A stretch of 64,000 nt of DNA from NCBI RefSeq assembly GCF_003018255.1, contig NZ_CP027440.1. One strand, 5' to 3'. Within the stretch, counting starts at the first letter, position 1. Every line of letters begins with the position of its first letter. The translations under genes were made by a program, and so were the position numbers. The notes below the pieces were generated by a model. That model made no database searches. It saw only the letters and a program-made list of their open reading frames with translations, and was not told the DNA's origin. This DNA is from Escherichia coli. Lineage in GTDB: Bacteria > Pseudomonadota > Gammaproteobacteria > Enterobacterales > Enterobacteriaceae. Positions 4,561 to 61,091 of this stretch are shown here, piece by piece.

Positions 4561-6571
4561 TTTTCGGATACCAGGCTGTTGAAAACTCAGGACGAATAAC
4601 GTCTATTTCAGGTTGGTTATGCAGAAAATTGTCGGGATAATAACCATAATTTTTCACTCCATTCAGTTGTAATAGGCTCATCCAGTGAGCGAGTTGTTGT
4701 GAAGAAATAGCCTGATGCTGACCATTTTTCTGCCAGTTTTGTGCCTGTAATTCTAAAATTGATTTGTCTTTAGCCTGCGGGATGCTTTTCATCTGATTGG
4801 TCAATTGTGTTAACCATTGATCAGCCGATTTTTCTGTGACGCCTTCCATATAAGGCATAGCCATAATAGCGGTCCAGTCATAGCTTTTTAGGAAATCAGC
4901 ATAATTCTGTGCAAACCAAGCTTCACTTTCAGGTTGTATTACCGGAAGTGCAAAAATATTTCGTGCAGTTTTAACATGTGGACCACGAATGGCTTTTACG
5001 CGCGCACTAAGTTCTAAAGTGAAGTCAGTTAACGCACGACTTTTAAAGCGGGTCCACTGTTTGAATTGCTCCGGGTTTTGTCGAATTTCGCTCAGACTCC
5101 CGCTAAAGCCAGCTTGCTGATAAGCCGCGATAGCCGCTGCACTGGCATCTTCATAATCTGAAAGCAAAGCATCATCGTGGAACAATATGCCATCAAAAGC
5201 AGCATGTCCGGCAAGATCATCATATAACATGCCAACTTGTGCTCTGACCCTGTCATCGAAAGGGGAGAGACGGCGGTATTGTTCAGGATGAATTTGTGCT
5301 TTTTTCTCCCCAGTTGGTAAGTATTTTACTCGCGTTAATGTGGGATCTAAATCCCAGCTTAATACCGGCATCCACGCATAGATGTTTACACCTGAGCGGG
5401 TACGCAATTGCCAGGCAACCCGACTAAAAATATCTGCTTTCATTGGTAGCAAACGATTTGGAAACCAGACCTCTTTAACCAGCCCATCACCATCGGGATC
5501 AGCAAATGCTTGTAAATACACGGTAGATATTTGCATATCTTTTACCCTCTGAATTAGCACATCAATATTGCGATCCATTTGCTGGCGGTTTTCGTCATAA
5601 ATGTAATCAAGATCGATATGCATTACCCGTTGTAGTGGTTTTTCCTGTACGGTAATAATTTGCTGGGCAAACTCTTTTAATGAGGGATTATTGGCGATTA
5701 ATACTCGCGGAATGGAATCTAATTGCGACGCATTTGCCAAACCTGATTCAAGGGTGAAGAACATGTCATAACCGAGTTTTTTTAATTCCGCGATTGCTAT
5801 GCCATTCGCTTCGCCATAAGGCCAAACAAAAACGTGTGGATTTACCTCAGCCTTTGTACGCAGGTATTCCGTCATTTTTACAGCATCCAGACGAATTCTT
5901 TCCCGGTATTCTGCTGCGGTTTCATACCGTGCGTGGTCAGTAAAATATGCACGATTTACATATACAGGCAATAAGCTGCCGGTGGCATTAGCCTGAATAC
6001 CGTAGTGAGAATTCCATGTATGAGAAGCGACCTCAACGAGCCGGGAACGCGCAACTTCTCGCACTTGTTGCCACGTGGCAAAATATTCTCGACTGACCAT
6101 CTCATCGCCAAATTTTACTTGTTCATCCGCTGGCGTATCGACCCAACTGCCGACGGGGGCCCATACAGCAGGCCACTGGAAGGCCTGAAGAATTGGGAAG
6201 ACGCGGGTATAAAAACTCTGGTAGCCGTCATCAAAAGTCAGCACTACTGCTTTTTCCGGTAGCGGTTTTCCTCCTCGATGTGCTTCACGAATTTGAGCAA
6301 TACTGACCGGTTGATAACCGTTCTCGCGCAGCCAGGCAAATTGTTCACGCAGTGCTGATGTCCGCACTGACATAAAACGCTGGTCGGCAGCTTCGTCTTC
6401 AACGTTATGCCATGAAATCGCCACAAAACCATTATGCGGCCACGGTTGCTCGGCGAGTAAAGATTCGCGATCCTGTGGCGGTATAAATGATGTTCTTGAC
6501 TGGCTAATGCACGCAGTGAGCATAATTATACTCACCAGCATCAGGATATATTTATTTCCATTACGTAACAT
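4553..6571 (-). CDS. pgaB: PGA N-deacetylase lipoprotein PgaB
   Basis: 672-aa ORF with lipoprotein signal (LTAC) and polysaccharide deacetylase region; overlaps pgaC start by 8 nt. Confidence 0.95.
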
Positions 6572-6579
6572 ATTTATCC

Positions 6580-9003
6580 TTAAAATCTGAATGTCATATC
6601 GAATTCAACGTATAAGTTGTGTTCTCTGTCACCGTCATAAGGTCGTTTTTCCCAGCGTAGCGTTGCGCCAGCATCAATCACGTCATTCCAGCTAATACGT
6701 TGCCCGTAGCCGAGTTGGGTGACGACATCCGTGCCATAATGTTTTTGCCAGGAGGCACCAACACCTGCGCTGAAGATTTGCTCCCAGCTATTTTCATAGC
6801 TTCGCCATAACAAATGACTTGCCTCAAATGCCGGAACAATATCGAACGTTTTTATAGGGTTGTAGTATGGAGTGTCGTGTTCTGTATTTTGTTCGTAATA
6901 CAGATTGGGTAGGAAATCGACAATCAAATATGGTGAAGACCAGATGCGTTCCTGACCCTCAAGTGAGACTTCCTGACGCTGGTTACTGTCGGAAAAATCA
7001 GTGAAAGCCCAGGAGACACCGTACTTACGCCGCTCATTTTGATACCAGCGAACATAAGCCTGAGCACTGTTGCCTGTAACACCATTTTTCATTGCCCGTA
7101 ATGGAACGCGGTGAGAGAGGCGTTCCAGTTGCGAACCAATACGCCAGTTATCATTAAAATCATACCAGCCAGACAGGCGCGCGCCGGGTTTATGCTCATG
7201 ATTGAAAACGCGTTCAGCGTACTCCGCCTCGAGCCAGATATTACGTGACCGCCACTCAACACCCGCCAGCCAGTCGCGAACAATCCCTTTTCCTTCGCTA
7301 AATTGTCCATCGGCATAACCGAATCCAGCAAAACCGCGCCAGTTATCCTTCAGCGGTGGTGAATAAACGATGGTGGTTAAGTCGACATCATGTTTACCAC
7401 TATCCGGGCCTTCGGCATCAATTCCTGTTGAACCAGCTATACGAAGCTCTGCAAGATTATGTACATCAACCGCACGTTTTAAACGTACAACGCCGGGATC
7501 TTGCGGTTCACGTTCGACAACATCGTGCGTTAAGACAGCTGCCTGCTGCCATTCTTGTAACGTTAATGCTGTCCATGCTTGTTCAACCTCCAGATTAATA
7601 TTACGTGGCTCGATCACTTCTGCTTTTTTTAATTCATTTTCTGCTGCACGAGGCCAACCGCGGGCTTGTAACACACTCGCGTAATCAATGCGCAGTCCCT
7701 GATTTCCTGGTGCGTTATAAGCAAGCTCTCTGGCTATCATTTCAGCCTGAGGAAGATCATTACTATATTTTGCTACGGTTGAGAGAAACGAATGCCCCTG
7801 TAACCAGGTATCATTCGGGATGCTCGTAGGCGTGCCCATTAACCGAAGGAAAGGCGGCGAAGTATTAATGGTATGTTGGGTGACAGTTAGCGCGCCGGGA
7901 TAATTTTCACTCTCCAGGTGGCTGTAAAAGAGATCCGCAAGTTCTTCATCGGATAAATCCGGGGCAATGGTCTCCTTGTGATAAAAGAGCTCTGTCATTA
8001 TTGACTGTGCTTTTTTTGGCTGCTGTTCTTTGAGATAAGCCGACGCAACCCAATATTGCGCCCAGGGCGGAATAATTTGCCTCGTATTTTTTAAACGCTG
8101 ATAGTGAGAAATAACGTCTTTATAACGATCGCGAGTTAATAACGCGCCAAGATGATCAACCTGAATACGCTGGTACTGGGCAGTGCGGTCTGAGTTATCG
8201 TGCCACAGAATTTCTAATGCAGCGTATTGGGCGAGGGCGCGATCGGCAATGGCATAACGTTCACTTTCACTGCGCGTAGGCATAAACGACAGTCTGATCA
8301 GTTCGGCATGAATATCAGCGCGAATATCTGGCGTTAAATTGGCATCGTCAATCGCGGCAGCTAGTTGATTATTACGTAATGCCTGCACGTATTCTGTGGG
8401 ATATTGTTGCTTAGATGCATTTTCAGGTAATGACTCTGTCATCGCCCGTAATTCATCCTGATGACGCCCCGTCAGTTTATAGATATAGGCTTCTGCGAGT
8501 AAATTGGCTTTGTCCGGCGCTCCAGATTTAAGCTGCTTAAGTTTAACCAGCGCAGTATCATAGTGACCCGCATCTGCCAGGGTTAAAATTTGTCCCCGTT
8601 GATAATCCTTATTTTGCGGCTCCAGAGAGAGCGCCTTTTGCCACAGTGTAAGCGAGTTTTGCCATTGTTGCAGGTTACGATAAGCGACGGCGACAGCTGC
8701 ATAACCACGCGCTGGTAATTGCTGATGACGGTAGCGGCTGTAAACGGTAATGACCTGTTTATCTTGCCCGGCCCATAAGGCAATTTGTAACCAGTCAGCA
8801 ATTTGGTTATTACTGAGTGTTGATTTTTGTGCAAACCATGACAAAGCTGGCTGAGTATTTCCTTTGCGAGCTTCAATAATCAATGCATCATAGGCGTTAT
8901 TAACAGCACTCTTCGCCGCGGGACTCGCTGCTAAAAATGCGGCAGTAAGAAGTTTCAAAGCCCATTTGGTTTTCGGGCACCTTTTTCTGCTACTTGAATA
9001 CAT
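6580..9003 (-). CDS. pgaA: PGA outer-membrane export porin PgaA (TPR plus beta-barrel)
   Basis: 807-aa ORF with signal peptide; length and sequence match PgaA. Confidence 0.95.
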   Translation of the reverse strand: MYSSSRKRCPKTKWALKLLTAAFLAASPAAKSAVNNAYDALIIEARKGNTQPALSWFAQKSTLSNNQIADWLQIALWAGQDKQVITVYSRYRHQQLPARGYAAVAVAYRNLQQWQNSLTLWQKALSLEPQNKDYQRGQILTLADAGHYDTALVKLKQLKSGAPDKANLLAEAYIYKLTGRHQDELRAMTESLPENASKQQYPTEYVQALRNNQLAAAIDDANLTPDIRADIHAELIRLSFMPTRSESERYAIADRALAQYAALEILWHDNSDRTAQYQRIQVDHLGALLTRDRYKDVISHYQRLKNTRQIIPPWAQYWVASAYLKEQQPKKAQSIMTELFYHKETIAPDLSDEELADLFYSHLESENYPGALTVTQHTINTSPPFLRLMGTPTSIPNDTWLQGHSFLSTVAKYSNDLPQAEMIARELAYNAPGNQGLRIDYASVLQARGWPRAAENELKKAEVIEPRNINLEVEQAWTALTLQEWQQAAVLTHDVVEREPQDPGVVRLKRAVDVHNLAELRIAGSTGIDAEGPDSGKHDVDLTTIVYSPPLKDNWRGFAGFGYADGQFSEGKGIVRDWLAGVEWRSRNIWLEAEYAERVFNHEHKPGARLSGWYDFNDNWRIGSQLERLSHRVPLRAMKNGVTGNSAQAYVRWYQNERRKYGVSWAFTDFSDSNQRQEVSLEGQERIWSSPYLIVDFLPNLYYEQNTEHDTPYYNPIKTFDIVPAFEASHLLWRSYENSWEQIFSAGVGASWQKHYGTDVVTQLGYGQRISWNDVIDAGATLRWEKRPYDGDREHNLYVEFDMTFRF

Positions 9004-9237: not shown

Positions 9238-9590
9238 TTTTCAAAATAAATTAGGATTAAAATAATTAAATCAGTAAATTCCGATGCATAATTTCGGATT
9301 TTTCGAAAGTCCTGATGAAAGGCAGCGCTACTGCACTCACGAATTTAATTGTTATTCCTAATGTATCTATTAATTAATGCTTTATAAGGATTTTATTATA
9401 ATCCTTTATAAGTATTTGCAAGCCTGCCTTGCAGCAAAAAATGTATAAAGCATTAAAGTGATAATAATTACATTCTGCAACTATCATCATCGGTATTGTT
9501 TGTGGGTGGATTTTCATATTGACAACAGTACAGTTCTTATATCTATTAATAATAAAAAGGGATCTACAACCTACAGGTTGGTGTAGCTTT

Positions 9591-10958
9591 ATGGAAAAAG
9601 ACTATTTGGGAATTAGTAGTACTGTATTAGTGAGCTTATTGTTTGGGCTTGCATTGGTTTTGGTTAATAGTTGGTTCAATCAGCCAACCGTTGAGGAAGT
9701 TGTTCCACGATCAACCTATCTGATGGTTATGATTGCTTTATTTTTTATCGATACTGTTGCATTTATTTTTATGCAGTTGTATTTCATTTATGACCGTAGG
9801 CAATTTTCAAACTGTATACTTAGTTTGGCTTTTCTAAGTTGTTTGATTTACTTTATTAAAACCGTCATTATCATTCAGCAAATTATTGAGGGGCGTTTGA
9901 CAAGCAGTGTTGTTCAAAATGACATTGCAATTTATTATTTGTTTCGTCAGATGAGTTTGTGCGTATTAATATTTCTGGCATTGGTAAATAAAGTTAGTGA
10001 AAACACAAAACAGCGCAATTTGTTTTCCAAAAAAGTGACTTTGTGCATAACTTTGTTTTTTGTTCTTGGGGGGCCGATAGTTGCTCACATATTTTCTAGC
10101 CATTATGAGAGCTACGATTTACACATTGCCGAGTTAACCAATAAAAATGGTCAGGTGGTTTGGAAAGCCTCATATGTTACCATAATGATTTTCATGTGGT
10201 TAACCTTGCTTTCGGTTAATCTATACTTTAATGGTTTACGCTGTGATATCTGGAACGGGGTGTCGGTGATTGCTTTTTGTGCCGTGCTGTACAATATCTC
10301 TCTGTTATTTATGAGCAGGTATAGCGTGTCCATTTGGTATATTAGTCGCACTATTGAAGTAGTCAGTAAGTTAACCGTTTTGGTAATTTTTATGTGCCAT
10401 ATATTCAGTGCGCTACGAGTAACAAAGGACATTGCACATCGCGATCCCTTAACCAATATATTTAACAGAAATTATTTTTTTAATGAACTGACGGTTCAAT
10501 CAGCATCGGCCAAAAAAAAACCTTATTGCGTCATGATTATGGATATTGACCACTTCAAAAAAGTCAACGACACCTGGGGACATCCGGTTGGCGATCAAGT
10601 GATAAAGACAGTGGTGAATATCATTGGGAAAAGCATACGACCAGATGACCTTTTAGCGCGCGTTGGCGGCGAAGAGTTTGGCGTCTTGCTGACGGAGATC
10701 GATACTGAATGTGCGAAAGCTTTAGCGGAAAGGATTCGGGAAAATGTTGAACGTTTAACTGGCGATAATCCTGAATACGCCATACCACAAAAAGTGACAA
10801 TTAGTATTGGCGCTGTTGTAACGCAGAAAAATGAGTTAAACCCTAAGGAGATCTATCAACTGGCTGATAACGCACTTTACGAGGCGAAAGAGACCGGGCG
10901 TAATAAGGTGGTAGTAAAAGAGGCAGAAATTCTTATCAACCGCAAGGATGATGAATGA
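9591..10958 (+). CDS. dgcT: Membrane-anchored diguanylate cyclase (GGDEF) YcdT/DgcT
   Basis: Multi-TM N-terminal half plus C-terminal GGDEF domain (RVGGEEFGVLL); start placed at ATG 9591 (MEKDYLGISS), downstream of the ORF-track start. Confidence 0.85.
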   Translation: MEKDYLGISSTVLVSLLFGLALVLVNSWFNQPTVEEVVPRSTYLMVMIALFFIDTVAFIFMQLYFIYDRRQFSNCILSLAFLSCLIYFIKTVIIIQQIIEGRLTSSVVQNDIAIYYLFRQMSLCVLIFLALVNKVSENTKQRNLFSKKVTLCITLFFVLGGPIVAHIFSSHYESYDLHIAELTNKNGQVVWKASYVTIMIFMWLTLLSVNLYFNGLRCDIWNGVSVIAFCAVLYNISLLFMSRYSVSIWYISRTIEVVSKLTVLVIFMCHIFSALRVTKDIAHRDPLTNIFNRNYFFNELTVQSASAKKKPYCVMIMDIDHFKKVNDTWGHPVGDQVIKTVVNIIGKSIRPDDLLARVGGEEFGVLLTEIDTECAKALAERIRENVERLTGDNPEYAIPQKVTISIGAVVTQKNELNPKEIYQLADNALYEAKETGRNKVVVKEAEILINRKDDE

Positions 10959-11020
10959 GTCTGTCGCTAGTTGTCGACCTCCGCCTGGGGCTTCTCATCC
11001 CCCAGTGTGTGAAATATACG

Positions 11021-11048
11021 AAAAAAAGCTCGCACTTTCGTACGAGCT
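11021..11048 (-). terminator. Intrinsic terminator downstream of serX
   Basis: Hairpin AGCTCG...CGAGCT followed by a U-run on the minus strand, just 3' of the tRNA. Confidence 0.45.
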
Positions 11049-11060
11049 CTTCTTTAAATA

Positions 11061-11148
11061 TGGCGGTGAGGGGGGGATTCGAACCCCCGATACGTTGCCG
11101 TATACACACTTTCCAGGCGTGCTCCTTCAGCCACTCGGACACCTCACC
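11061..11148 (-). tRNA. serX: tRNA-Ser (anticodon GGA), encoded CCA, long variable arm
   Basis: Reverse complement reads GGTGAGGTGTCCGAGTGGCTGAAGGAGCACGCCTGGAAAGTGTG...GGTTCGAATCCCCCCCTCACCGCCA; anticodon loop CUGGAAA gives anticodon GGA. Confidence 0.93.
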
Positions 11149-11182
11149 AAATTGTCGTTCCTGTCTTGCTGGAACGGGCGCT

Positions 11183-11211
11183 AATTTAGGGAAATCATGA
11201 CCTGAGGTCAA
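11183..11211 (-). promoter_or_regulatory. Putative sigma70 promoter of serX
   Basis: TTGACC - 17 nt - TAAATT on the minus strand, followed by a GC-rich discriminator, about 30 nt upstream of the mature tRNA 5' end. Confidence 0.5.
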
Positions 11212-11329
11212 CAAACTTTTTTAAAAAATCGCTCGATTATTCAAACTTCAATCAATATGCAGTTTTAATAAGCGAAATTTGCTTTTTTTGCCACCGACCA
11301 CGGATTTGTTATGCTGCTGGTCTTTGTAG

Positions 11330-12319
<990 letters not shown>

Positions 12320-14345: not shown

Positions 14346-15179
14346 TCAGGATTCCGGTGGAACCGACATATGGCGGTATTTCACTAGAATGTCATTCTGC
14401 CGTTCTGCTTTATTTTGCAAATCCCAAAGACCGCGGTCGATACCATCATTAATCAGGAAAATGACGCCTGTTTCGATAGCCGACATCAGGCACAGCATAA
14501 CGGGTTCGTTCGAGGTGTAACCTACTTCCCCTTCCAGCAAGCGCTGGTAGTCAATAAAGCGGAAGACCCCCGCCTGAACTTCATAGGAAAGTATCGTCTT
14601 ACTGGTGTTCACCGAGGAGAGGATCTCGCCGGTACTCACATTGACGACGCGCAGGTTCACGGCAATCTGATCAAGCTGGTATTGCGTGTCTGCACCGATC
14701 CCAAAATATCTTGCCCCAACCCCGCCCGATTTAACGTTGCTTTCATAACCGATAATTGAACCTTCAACCATGATATTTGCCGCCGTTAAAGATTGCAGCG
14801 GGATTCGGTTATTAATGGCAACCGTGCCGTTTTCTTGTGCCGCACGAATAATCTTGCGCTCGTTAAGCAGGTTTTGTAAGCCTTGGCGCTCCAGCGGTAT
14901 AAACCAGCGAGAATCTTTCAATGCCGTGACCAGCATTGCCGTGGCGCTTTGCGGAACAGCAGTGGAGAAGTTACTTGCCGGGTAGGGTTTAAATTGCCCG
15001 GTTTCGTCCTGAATGTTGTATACCGAAACAAAGATCTTACCCGTCGGCGCTGGCAGATGGGTCAAATCTTTGTAGCTCTGAGCACGAGGCATTAATGTCG
15101 GTCTGGCGGCTTCTTTAGGCGGGGCGGTTAAGCATCCGCTCAGTAACATGACGGCAACCAAAAGAAATAAGCGCTGCAT
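14346..15179 (-). CDS. csgG: Curli secretion channel lipoprotein CsgG
   Basis: 277-aa ORF with lipoprotein signal (LLSGC); matches CsgG. Confidence 0.95.
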   Translation of the reverse strand: MQRLFLLVAVMLLSGCLTAPPKEAARPTLMPRAQSYKDLTHLPAPTGKIFVSVYNIQDETGQFKPYPASNFSTAVPQSATAMLVTALKDSRWFIPLERQGLQNLLNERKIIRAAQENGTVAINNRIPLQSLTAANIMVEGSIIGYESNVKSGGVGARYFGIGADTQYQLDQIAVNLRVVNVSTGEILSSVNTSKTILSYEVQAGVFRFIDYQRLLEGEVGYTSNEPVMLCLMSAIETGVIFLINDGIDRGLWDLQNKAERQNDILVKYRHMSVPPES

Positions 15180-15205: not shown

Positions 15206-15622
15206 TTAAAAATCGGTTGAGTTATTTTGTAAACCCGAAACCTGGATGGTCGAGGTTTGTCCGGTTTTACGATCTGTCACGTTCAACTGCAATTGACCAT
15301 CGCGGTTAGCAATATCAACAATATAATCGTTGGTCACCATGCGGCCCGGTTTACCGGTATTAATATTCGACAGTAGCCCACCCAAAATTTGTGACTGGAT
15401 GGCCTGAGTAAAGTTATCTAACGCCGAGGGCGTTTCAATACCAAAGTCATCGTTATAGCTCGGATCTTTATAAGAGTTTTGGGCCTGAGCGCTATTTAAC
15501 AAAAAAGCGCCATTATTTGGGTTACCACCAAAGTTTGGATTACGGAACTGGAAAGTCATGGTTCCAGCCCAACTTAATGGCGAAATAAGCATGAGTAGAA
15601 CTACTGCATGTTTGACACGCAT
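15206..15622 (-). CDS. csgF: Curli assembly protein CsgF
   Basis: 138-aa secreted protein in the csgDEFG operon. Confidence 0.93.
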
Positions 15623-15646: not shown

Positions 15647-16036
15647 TTAAAATTCATCATGCGCCAAATCGCCCGTACTTAATAACGCTTGGTTTATCTG
15701 GCGACGATTTAGTGCTTCTTCAGTTTGAATCAGTGCAAAGACGACAGTTTTCTCGAAGTCTCTTTTCAACGGAAATAAAAAAGTCTGGAAAATAACGTCC
15801 TGATTCACCGTTATTGTGATCCAGCTTCCCCATCGTGCACTGGGCCTTTCATTAATCGTTAAGTTACCCGTATAGTCACTTTCCCATTTATCACTAAAGG
15901 CTCGGTAAAAATCATGGCCAATAGATGAAACAGTATGGTCAGTTAACAATCCCGGGACTTCTACCTCAACGGCGTGAAGATTCCCTGCGGCGAACAGAAA
16001 TTCTGCCGCCACAATCCAGCGTAAATAACGTTTCAT
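15647..16036 (-). CDS. csgE: Curli secretion specificity factor CsgE
   Basis: 129-aa ORF between csgD and csgF. Confidence 0.93.
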
Positions 16037-16040
16037 GGCT

Positions 16041-16691
<651 letters not shown>

Positions 16692-17444
16692 GATGAAACC
16701 CCGCTTTTTTTATTGATCGCACACCTGACAGCTGCCTCTAAAATAGAAGCACCAGAAGTACTGACAGATGTTGCACTGCTGTGTGTAGTAATAAATCAGC
16801 CCTAAATGGGTAAAATATAAAACTAATGGATTACATCTGATTTCAATCTAGCCATTACAAATCTTAAATCAAGTGTTAAACATGTAACTAAATGTAACTC
16901 GTTATATTAAAATGTTAATCTTAAGGTTTTATTAAGTTTAGAAATGATAGAAAAGTTGTACATTTGGTTTTTATTGCACAATTTTAAAAAATCATACAAA
17001 TGGTGCTAACTTACTAATAATGCATATAAAAAATATTTCGGTGTAGTCCTTTCGTCATGTAAAACGTTCTTGTTTTTTCTCCACACCTCCGTGGACAATT
17101 TTTTACTGCAAAAAGACGAGGTTTGTCACGGCTTGTGCGCAAGACATATCGCAGCAATCAGCGACGGGCAAGAAGAATGATTGTCTGGTGATTTTTGATA
17201 GCGGAAAACGGAGATTTAAAAGAAAACAAAATATTTTTTGCGTAGATAACAGCGTATTTACGTGAGTTTTAATACTTTGGTATGAACAAAAAAAGAAAAA
17301 TACAACGCGCGGGTGAGTTATTAAAAATATTTCCGCAGACATACTTTCCATCGTAACGCAGCGTTAACAAAATACAGGTTGCGTTAACAACCAAGTTGAA
17401 ATGATTTAATTTCTTAAATGTACGACCAGGTCCAGGGTGACAAC
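16692..17444. promoter_or_regulatory. csgD-csgB divergent intergenic control region (csgDEFG and csgBAC promoters, csgD 5' UTR)
   Basis: About 750 bp AT-rich non-coding DNA between divergent csgD and csgB; well known as a multi-regulator hub. Confidence 0.6.
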
Positions 17445-17900
17445 ATGAAAAACAAATTGTTATTTATGATGTTAACAATACTGGGTGCGCCTGGGATTGC
17501 AGCCGCAGCAGGTTATGATTTAGCTAATTCAGAATATAACTTCGCGGTAAATGAATTGAGTAAGTCTTCATTTAATCAGGCAGCCATAATTGGTCAAGCT
17601 GGGACTAATAATAGTGCTCAGTTACGGCAGGGAGGCTCAAAACTTTTGGCGGTTGTTGCGCAAGAAGGTAGTAGCAACCGGGCAAAGATTGACCAGACAG
17701 GAGATTATAACCTTGCATATATTGATCAGGCGGGCAGTGCCAACGATGCCAGTATTTCGCAAGGTGCTTATGGTAATACTGCGATGATTATCCAGAAAGG
17801 TTCTGGTAATAAAGCAAATATTACACAGTATGGTACTCAAAAAACGGCAATTGTAGTGCAGAGACAGTCGCAAATGGCTATTCGCGTGACACAACGTTAA
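17445..17900 (+). CDS. csgB: Minor curlin subunit (nucleator) CsgB
   Basis: 151-aa product from ATG 17445 (MKNKLLFMMLTILG...) with signal peptide and curlin repeats. Confidence 0.93.
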   Translation: MKNKLLFMMLTILGAPGIAAAAGYDLANSEYNFAVNELSKSSFNQAAIIGQAGTNNSAQLRQGGSKLLAVVAQEGSSNRAKIDQTGDYNLAYIDQAGSANDASISQGAYGNTAMIIQKGSGNKANITQYGTQKTAIVVQRQSQMAIRVTQR

Positions 17901-17940: not shown

Positions 17941-18396
17941 ATGAAACTTTTAAAAGTAGCAGCAATTGCAGCAATCGTATTCTCTGGTAGCGCTCTGGCA
18001 GGTGTTGTTCCTCAGTACGGCGGCGGCGGTAACCACGGTGGTGGCGGTAATAATAGCGGCCCAAATTCAGAGCTGAACATTTACCAGTACGGTGGCGGTA
18101 ACTCTGCTCTTGCTCTGCAAGCTGACGCCCGTAACTCTGATCTGACCATTACCCAGCACGGCGGCGGTAACGGCGCAGATGTTGGCCAAGGTTCTGATGA
18201 CAGCTCAATCGATCTGACTCAGCGTGGTTTCGGCAACAGCGCTACTCTTGATCAGTGGAATGGTAAAGATTCTACTATGACTGTTAAACAGTTCGGTGGT
18301 GGTAACGGTGCTGCTGTTGACCAGACTGCATCTAACTCCAGCGTCAACGTCACTCAGGTTGGCTTTGGTAACAACGCGACCGCTCATCAGTACTAA
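17941..18396 (+). CDS. csgA: Major curlin subunit CsgA
   Basis: 151-aa ORF with signal peptide and five Ser-X5-Gln-X-Gly-X-Gly-Asn repeats. Confidence 0.95.
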   Translation: MKLLKVAAIAAIVFSGSALAGVVPQYGGGGNHGGGGNNSGPNSELNIYQYGGGNSALALQADARNSDLTITQHGGGNGADVGQGSDDSSIDLTQRGFGNSATLDQWNGKDSTMTVKQFGGGNGAAVDQTASNSSVNVTQVGFGNNATAHQY

Positions 18397-18454: not shown

Positions 18455-18838
<384 letters not shown>

Positions 18839-26907: not shown

Positions 26908-27010
26908 GTTGCCTGATGCGCTACGCTTATCAGGCCTACATCGTTCCTGCAATTTATTGATTTTGCAAGATTTTGTAGGTCGGGTAAAGCGTTCACGCCG
27001 CATCCGGCAA
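26908..27010. repeat. REP/BIME element pair
   Basis: Two inverted REP units (GCCTGATGCGCTACGCTTATCAGGCC and GTAGGTCGGGTAAAGCGTTCACGCCGCATCCGGC) downstream of opgH. Confidence 0.7.
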
Positions 27011-36103: not shown

Positions 36104-36164
36104 TAATCTCTATGCTCCGGCTGAAGGGATGTTTTTGCCGGACACAAAGGATAAGCGGAAACGT

Positions 36165-54572: not shown

Positions 54573-55357
<785 letters not shown>

Positions 55358-55384
55358 AAATATATCCTTCGGCTTTGCGTGGAT

Positions 55385-55425
55385 GATAATTATACAGTAC
55401 ATGTAACGCTAATGTCATTACAGCA
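55385..55425 (-). promoter_or_regulatory. Putative promoter/operator of the toxin-antitoxin operon
   Basis: Minus strand: ATGACA - 18 nt - TATAAT, with palindromes TAATGACATTA (over the -35) and TACATGTA (in the spacer). Confidence 0.4.
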
Positions 55426-58676: not shown

Positions 58677-59037
58677 CGTAACTTACTCATTATTCTTACA
58701 TTGACGACTAAGCTGCGGGCAAAGTAACGCCTTTCCGGGTGTGAACCGATGGCCTCGTGTCTAGTCGCGTCGCCAACCTCACGGTTATCGTCAGCTCAAA
58801 GAGGCGCAGAGTGTCGGTTGCCCGTTTTTCATGCGGAAAAACAGCGCAATTATCAAAGAAACAGACTGGGTATTACTCTCCAGAAATATTTCCATCTACC
58901 GGTAAGGACTGCAACCCGCAGCCCGCTAACTGCCTGAAAGATCAATACGTCTTACGCCATTGCTGCGTGGATGATCGGTCGGGCAAAATGGGTTATTCCG
59001 TAAAATTTCTTGTTTTAACAAGGATGGACACGGAAAC
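58677..59037 (-). promoter_or_regulatory. rne 5' untranslated leader (autoregulatory) and promoter-proximal region
   Basis: About 360 nt of non-coding sequence between the rne start and the divergent rluC region; extent taken from the known long rne leader. Confidence 0.55.
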
Positions 59038-60320: not shown

Positions 60321-60905
60321 CTATCCCATCAGCGGGTTTTTCCCTTCCCGACGTAACATCTGACACAGCGCGATTAGCGGTAAACCAACCAGCGTGTTAG
60401 GATCTCGCCCCTCTAAACGCTCAAACAGCGTAATGCCAAATCCTTCACTCTTAAAGCTACCCGCGCAGTGCAGGGGATGCTCTTTACGCACGTAATTATC
60501 AATCTCCGCCTCGCTCAGGTGACGGAAATGGACGTCAAAAGGCTCCACTTCTGTTTGTAGATGCCCATTCGCCGAATTAAACAACGCCAGTCCAGTATAG
60601 AAGGTGACGATATTGCCGCTGGCTTTGCGTAATTGCAGACGGGCATTTTCTTCCGTTAACGGTTTACCGGTGATTTCGCCATCAAGAACACATACCTGGT
60701 CTGAACCAATAATTAAATGATCCGGATAACGTGACGCCAGAGATTGCGCTTTTTCTTGTGCCAGTCGAAGCACCAACTGTCGCGGTGATTCGTCGCTGCG
60801 TGGAGTTTCGTCGACCTCGGGTGCTGCACATTCAAAAGAGATTTGCAGTTTTTCCAGAAGAGCGCGACGCCAGGGCGAGGTGGAGGCTAAAATAAGTTTA
60901 GGCAT
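60321..60905 (-). CDS. yceF: Maf-like nucleotide pyrophosphatase YceF
   Basis: 194-aa product from ATG at 60905 ([20 protein letters not shown]...). Confidence 0.9.
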
Positions 60906-61091
60906 ATTTTTTTCCATCAGATATAGCGTATTGATGATAGCCATTTTAAACTATGCGCTTCGTTTTGCAGGTTGATGTTCGTTATCAGCACTGAACGAAA
61001 ATAAAGCAGTAACCCGCAATGTGTGCGAATTATTGGCAAAAGGCAACCACAGGCTGCCTTTTTCTTTGACTCTATGACGTTACAAAGTTAA

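Follow-up and report, generated by a model that had tools for sequence, protein, structure and literature searches.

The 753-bp stretch between csgD and csgB in the 64-kb window analysed here (the whole piece of Escherichia coli DNA under study, 64,000 nucleotides long, which covers the efeB-pga-csg-mdo-flg-rne-fabH segment of the chromosome) is, on sequence grounds, very probably the curli control region of E. coli, orthologous and undamaged and present as a minor natural haplotype, and should work as it does in K-12. An intact, AT-rich control region of about 750 bp had originally been predicted at this place from the DNA alone, and the coordinates given for it prove exact. Its G+C content of 34.1% contrasts with 49.8% for the whole window, and falls to a trough of 27.7% at 16750-17049. 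The counterpart in K-12 MG1655 (NC_000913.3 1103197-1103950) is 754 bp long, and a global alignment of the two runs from end to end at 99.1% identity, with seven differences (six SNPs, and one T fewer in a T-run). Consistent with the prediction, this end-to-end alignment contains no IS element or other insertion in 16692-17444. All seven differences fall within 16919-17288, and the parts that adjoin the genes are identical to K-12: on the csgD side this covers 227 bp, with the leader, core promoter and OmpR box, and on the csgB side 156 bp, with the CsgD box. Point mutations in the OmpR or sigma-S promoter elements, which the original prediction had named as the finding that would count against it, are absent from the D1 box, the -10 and -35 elements, the 5' UTR and the CsgD box. 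The same 753 bp are found with 100% identity in APEC O2-211 and JNE23-011.

The region is flanked by the curli genes in divergent orientation, with csgDEFG on the minus strand and csgBAC on the plus strand, as seen from the open reading frames and their translations and from the annotation of the identical DNA in APEC O2-211 and JNE23-011 (Table 1). All seven genes were translated and none contains an internal stop. The intactness claimed for csgD, csgB, csgA and csgC thus extends to csgE, csgF and csgG, whose gene calls agree with the annotation in JNE23-011 and APEC O2-211. CsgD is WP_000481500.1, the allele common to the non-K-12 strains annotated (10/10), its identity having been checked directly against APEC O2-211; it differs from the K-12 protein at residues 19 and 110, and here K-12 is the odd one out. 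CsgA (T61A, N110D and E112T relative to K-12) and CsgC (T3A and V24M) are the same as the corresponding proteins of JNE23-011. The start of csgB is the ATG at 17445, although the listed open reading frame opens at an in-frame ATG further upstream (17418).

Every mapped core element of the region is identical to its K-12 counterpart. The csgD leader is a target of Hfq-dependent sRNAs, and the Rfam family ES056 (RF02752), which matches its first 92 nt, was established from a 92-nt transcript that RNA-seq revealed at csgD and whose start was mapped experimentally (PMC4676190). ES056 is more simply explained as a piece of the csgD mRNA, from its 5' UTR, than as a separate gene. The primers of a fragment described as '-335 to +67' (PMC12388358) map to 17174 and 16773 and place +1 at 16839/16840. 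The Rfam 5' end, the mapped transcription start and the primer coordinates agree, which points to a csgD start at 16838-16840 on the minus strand. An A-to-T change in the -10 element just upstream (AATCT to ATTCT, for a -10 of TAGAAT) renders curli production constitutive in O157:H7 (PMC7232329). The window reads AATCT at 16845-16849, the wild-type form of the site, and its promoter should therefore be of the regulated, stationary-phase and low-temperature type.

Further upstream of the csgD start lie the activator boxes. The 24-bp sequence matched at 16875-16898 is what we take to be the OmpR D1 box, and the imperfect palindrome at 16951-16985 is presumably the MlrA site, which is said to have been described by Ogasawara (2010, FEMS Microbiol Lett). 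The palindrome itself carries no difference, the nearest SNPs on its two sides being those at 16919 and 17006. The positions of sites were taken from later papers quoting footprints (PMC3535384, PMC12388358, PMC13304067, PMC4894380), among them a review that places OmpR D1 near -51 (PMC13304067).

Table 1. Features of the curli locus in the 64-kb window; distances with a minus sign are relative to the csgD transcription start
Feature	Position	Strand	Remarks
csgG	14346-15179	(-)	Curli secretion/assembly; translation identical to K-12 CsgG
csgF	15206-15622	(-)	Curli secretion/assembly; translation identical to K-12 CsgF
csgE	15647-16036	(-)	Curli secretion/assembly; translation identical to K-12 CsgE
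csgD	16041-16691	(-)	Master regulator, 216 aa, full length
csgD-csgB divergent intergenic control region	16692-17444		753 bp, 34.1% G+C
csgD 5' UTR	16692-16838	(-)	147-148 nt; no K-12 difference
Rfam ES056 (RF02752)	16747-16838	(-)	First 92 nt of csgD leader; full-model match, 119.7 bits
csgD core promoter P1	16845-16872	(-)	-10 TAGATT 16850-16845; -35-like TTGATT 16872-16867; 16-bp spacer; identical to K-12
OmpR D1 activator box	16875-16898	(-)	GTTACATTTAGTTACATGTTTAAC; about -37 to -60; exact 24-bp match; identical to K-12
Variant MqsA-type palindrome	16917-16928		AATCTTAAGGTT in the window, AACCTTAAGGTT in K-12; SNP at 16919, about -79
Presumed MlrA box	16951-16985		Imperfect palindrome AAAAGTTGTACA-N12-TGCACAATTTT; about -112 to -146; identical to K-12
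Reported initial RcdA binding region	17031-17147		-192 to -308 (PMC3535384)
Haplotype SNP	17181		T here, C elsewhere; about -341
Haplotype SNP	17265		A here, G elsewhere; about -425; 180 bp upstream of csgB ATG
Putative CsgD box upstream of csgB	17310-17320	(+)	CGGGTGAGTTA; within the K-12-identical 156 bp
csgB	17445-17900	(+)	Full length; CsgB identical to K-12 protein
csgA	17941-18396	(+)	Full length
csgC	18455-18787	(+)	Full length

On the csgB side, the motif CGGGKGAGNKA, which we take to be the CsgD-box consensus and which reportedly goes back to Zakikhany (2010), has a single match in the 64-kb window, against a chance expectation of 0.28. Because 23 of 100 shuffled sequences also gave at least one match, it is the position of this putative CsgD box, rather than the number of matches, that provides the evidence for it.

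We infer binding and regulation at csgD-csgB from the K-12 and Salmonella literature, according to which a weak csgD promoter (-10 TAGATT), dependent on sigma-S and sigma-70, would drive csgDEFG. This promoter would be activated by OmpR-P at D1, by MlrA at the palindrome and by IHF, with H-NS, CpxR and RcsB acting as silencers (the RcsB site on csgD spans -31 to +54; PMC12388358). The 147/148-nt csgD leader would provide a landing pad for inhibitory small RNAs, and the CsgD protein would bind the CsgD box upstream of csgB to turn on csgBAC. From the same literature, the region is predicted to drive transcription of both csgD and csgB, as well as curli production, in stationary-phase cells at 28 °C.

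The distribution of the region in the species was surveyed in 5426 complete E. coli genomes, with the intergenic region as query. Matches of any kind were found in 5371 genomes, and unbroken matches covering 80% or more of the length in 5329, at identities of 97.6-100%, which argues for orthology and not chance. The full-length region is the default state, present in about 98% of sequenced genomes, and for this reason its intactness is uninformative. The 100% identical allele occurs in at least 30 genomes (including APEC O2-211 and O78:H4 APEC strains) from chicken, turkey, pig, dog, human and water sources; the closest genome across 25 kb is JNE23-011, at 99.9%.

Damaged copies do exist, and the contrast originally drawn with laboratory lineages is a real one, since E. 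coli C has lost csgB and the greater part of the intergenic region to an IS5/IS1182 element (PMC6805351). In the human stool isolate S1-CAM-01-A, ISKpn26 has taken the place of csgD and most of csgE and has left only 61 bp of the intergenic region (4739-8072 of the isolate's sequence), and a second element, IS903B, lies between csgA and csgC; the curli locus of this strain is destroyed. A smaller lesion is seen in strain 43905 (urine, Hungary), where 10 bp equivalent to window positions 16882-16891, inside the OmpR D1 box, are gone. The tandem GTTACAT repeats of this box in the csgD promoter are thereby collapsed, and the result is likely a loss-of-activation allele in a clinical isolate. As for the window, the original observation is correct and describes a textbook region in its usual, already known state. 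Its importance is small: few bacterial promoters have been mapped as well as the curli control region, and E. coli normally has an intact copy.

The original prediction went on to call the strain genetically competent for curli production. This stands for the cis region and the genes, which are intact, but does not extend to the phenotype, as trans genes can abolish curli despite intact promoters: curli production needs an intact cis region but is not guaranteed by one. Soil isolates with csgB and csgD promoters reported to be 100% identical were curli-positive or curli-negative according to a dgcE frameshift, with about 10% of the isolates curli-negative (PMC6029578), and STEC with intact promoters were curli-negative through a prophage in mlrA or through rpoS mutations (PMC3874044, PMC7232329). 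A strain with an intact locus that is nevertheless curli-negative, via a defect elsewhere (in rpoS, mlrA, ompR, dgcE, dgcM or another gene), is thus a documented situation, but we consider it unlikely here, as most natural isolates (90%) are curli-positive under permissive conditions (PMC6029578) and nothing in the 64-kb window points to such a defect. None of rpoS, mlrA, ompR, dgcE, dgcM and pdeR lies within the window. Caution is needed, because the curli phenotype is not predicted by an intact cis region; in most cases trans-acting genes (rpoS, mlrA, dgcE and others) determine it.

The seven differences from K-12 are probably ordinary population polymorphisms, and a function-abolishing effect is not expected of them. 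An alignment of 12 alleles (the window, K-12, O91, O111:H8, ST2747, ST131 JJ1887, O157:H7, O139:H1, S88, 43905, JNE23-011 and APEC O2-211) shows the window in the majority state and K-12 in the minority at 17006, 17191, 17233 and 17288. Of the K-12 states, the bases at 17191 and 17288 occur in no other allele of the 12, the A at 17006 is also found in O91 and O111:H8, and the longer T-run at 17233 is also found in ST2747 and O139:H1. The combination of 17181T and 17265A occurs only in the window, JNE23-011 and APEC O2-211 among the 12 alleles, and identity of at least 99% over 17161-17285 is limited to 88 of 5342 matching records. Both positions lie beyond the RcdA region (-192 to -308) and upstream of the CsgD box, and we know of no mapped site at either.

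The SNP at 16919 is the central base of one half site of a palindrome. The window shares its T with O91, O111, JJ1887, O139, 43905, JNE23-011 and APEC O2-211, while K-12, O157:H7 and S88 have C and ST2747 has A, making T the commonest of the three. In the 5426 genomes, 41-mer searches requiring the allele found T in 2534 (∼47%) and C in 2172 (∼40%). The T form, present in nearly half of the genomes and in many lineages, would therefore be a balanced common variant, not a special lesion. The K-12 palindrome (AACCT-TA-AGGTT, at -78), a non-defining feature of the region that is not present in this form in the window, was described by Soo and Wood as an MqsA operator; MqsA bound it in EMSA, and a five-base change in the other half abolished binding (PMC4894380). 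Footprints reported around -78 comprise CpxR boxes at -68 to -80 and -90 to -102, IHF at -37 to -96 and H-NS at +28 to -201 (PMC4894380), and 16919 falls within those of CpxR (-68 to -80), IHF and H-NS. Fraikin et al. found that mqsRA deletion or moderate MqsA overproduction was without effect on the csgD promoter (PMC6918082), and the 'broken' palindrome in about 47% of genomes fits the doubt over MqsA as a conserved csgD regulator. The SNP was rejected as a promoter lesion, being a common allele in a repressor site of disputed relevance (PMC6918082). If it mattered at all, it would relieve repression, and raise rather than abolish expression.

A related reading is that the haplotype is regulatory, with the C-to-T change at -79 weakening the MqsA and/or CpxR (-68 to -80) site or altering how IHF and H-NS are arranged, perhaps in concert with 17181T and 17265A, and shifting curli expression so that it is, for example, higher or less temperature-restricted. 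Besides the broken half of the MqsA-bound palindrome and the overlap with the CpxR, IHF and H-NS footprints (PMC4894380), this draws on reports that single-base changes in the csgD region can strongly alter curli expression (PMC7232329, PMC13304067), as in O157:H7, where one -10 base flips the phenotype (PMC7232329), and on a 2026 preprint in which intergenic polymorphisms separate rdar phenotype classes in UPEC, those at OmpR, IHF and CsgD sites being tied to semi-constitutive rdar. We nevertheless regard the regulatory reading as decidedly unlikely, because the T allele is so widespread, MqsA does not regulate csgD at physiological levels (PMC6918082), natural csgD promoter types differ by only ∼30% in reporter tests in a common host (PMC3874044), and 17181 and 17265 are outside every mapped site found. 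The preprint makes a quantitative effect possible, and it is conceivable, if very improbable, that the combination of -79T, 17181T and 17265A (found in some 88 of roughly 5340 complete genomes, often of poultry origin) changes the response of csgD/csgB to CpxR, IHF or H-NS. If true, the haplotype would mark a lineage with a different curli programme, for example with expression at 37 °C.

We read the region as an ordinary curli control region; that it also harbours something further, such as a gene for a small protein or a plus-strand RNA that terminates at a hairpin at 17080-17095, is hardly credible and largely refuted: an 82-codon open reading frame at 17103-17351 (-) and the terminator-like hairpin with its T-run on the plus strand speak for it, but the frame spans the 17233 T-run indel and would shift in K-12 and other alleles, the two terminator-like sites found are no clear enrichment over the 0.7 ± 1.1 expected, the hairpin is a polymorphism cluster and not a conserved element, and an Rfam scan of the intergenic region at a permissive threshold returned nothing besides ES056 in the csgD leader. 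Promoter-like and terminator-like consensus matches in the intergenic region were not above the shuffled expectation, in a scan that misses the real, weak csgD promoter. The hairpin and T-run (TCCACACCTCCGTGGA CAATTTTTT) lie inside the reported RcdA region. Four sites in it (17081, 17083, 17084 and 17088) are polymorphic among the 12 alleles, with the window identical to K-12 at all four, and the three changes in the stem are transitions after which the plus strand could still pair through G-U; this hotspot is probably due to chance.

Elsewhere in the window, other Rfam matches above the gathering score are Ysr251 (2572-2765), a tRNA (11064-11148, tRNA-Ser in the JNE23-011 annotation), ES036 (26932-26974), the PyrC leader (36104-36153), the rne 5' UTR element (58701-59037) and SraB (60899-61067). 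In JNE23-011, the closest genome, tRNA-Ser and ghrA come immediately after dgcT (window positions of about 9500-11400); an IS3 copy and ycdU, which we take to lie near tRNA-Ser in K-12, appear to be absent from this part of the window. In other strains an island adjoins tRNA-Ser, and the S1-CAM-01-A sequence opens with a DUF4942 gene. Between flgL and rne (54573-55402, minus strand) there is a gene pair annotated in JNE23-011 as a GNAT-family acetyltransferase toxin and a TacA-family antitoxin; we know of no such pair in K-12.

Among known systems, the region is closest in anatomy to that of K-12 MG1655, with which it shares the flanking genes and their orientation, the core promoter, the ES056 leader, OmpR D1, the MlrA palindrome and the CsgD box, and from which it differs in length (753 versus 754 bp) by the T-run and in six SNPs, including AATCTTAAGGTT in place of K-12 AACCTTAAGGTT at 16919. 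O157:H7 ATCC 43895 carries the constitutive -10 variant ATTCT, whereas the window has the wild-type AATCT (PMC7232329). At the same locus, most of the intergenic region has been lost together with csgB in E. coli C and together with csgD in S1-CAM-01-A, in contrast to the window, which has neither an insertion nor a deletion of this kind. Salmonella enterica serovar Typhimurium, likened here by description, has the same divergent architecture, with OmpR D1 near -51, inputs from IHF, H-NS and MlrA, and a CsgD box by csgB (PMC13304067), but belongs to another genus, in which the +1 to +54 leader is poorly conserved and the effects of RcsB and H-NS differ (PMC12388358).
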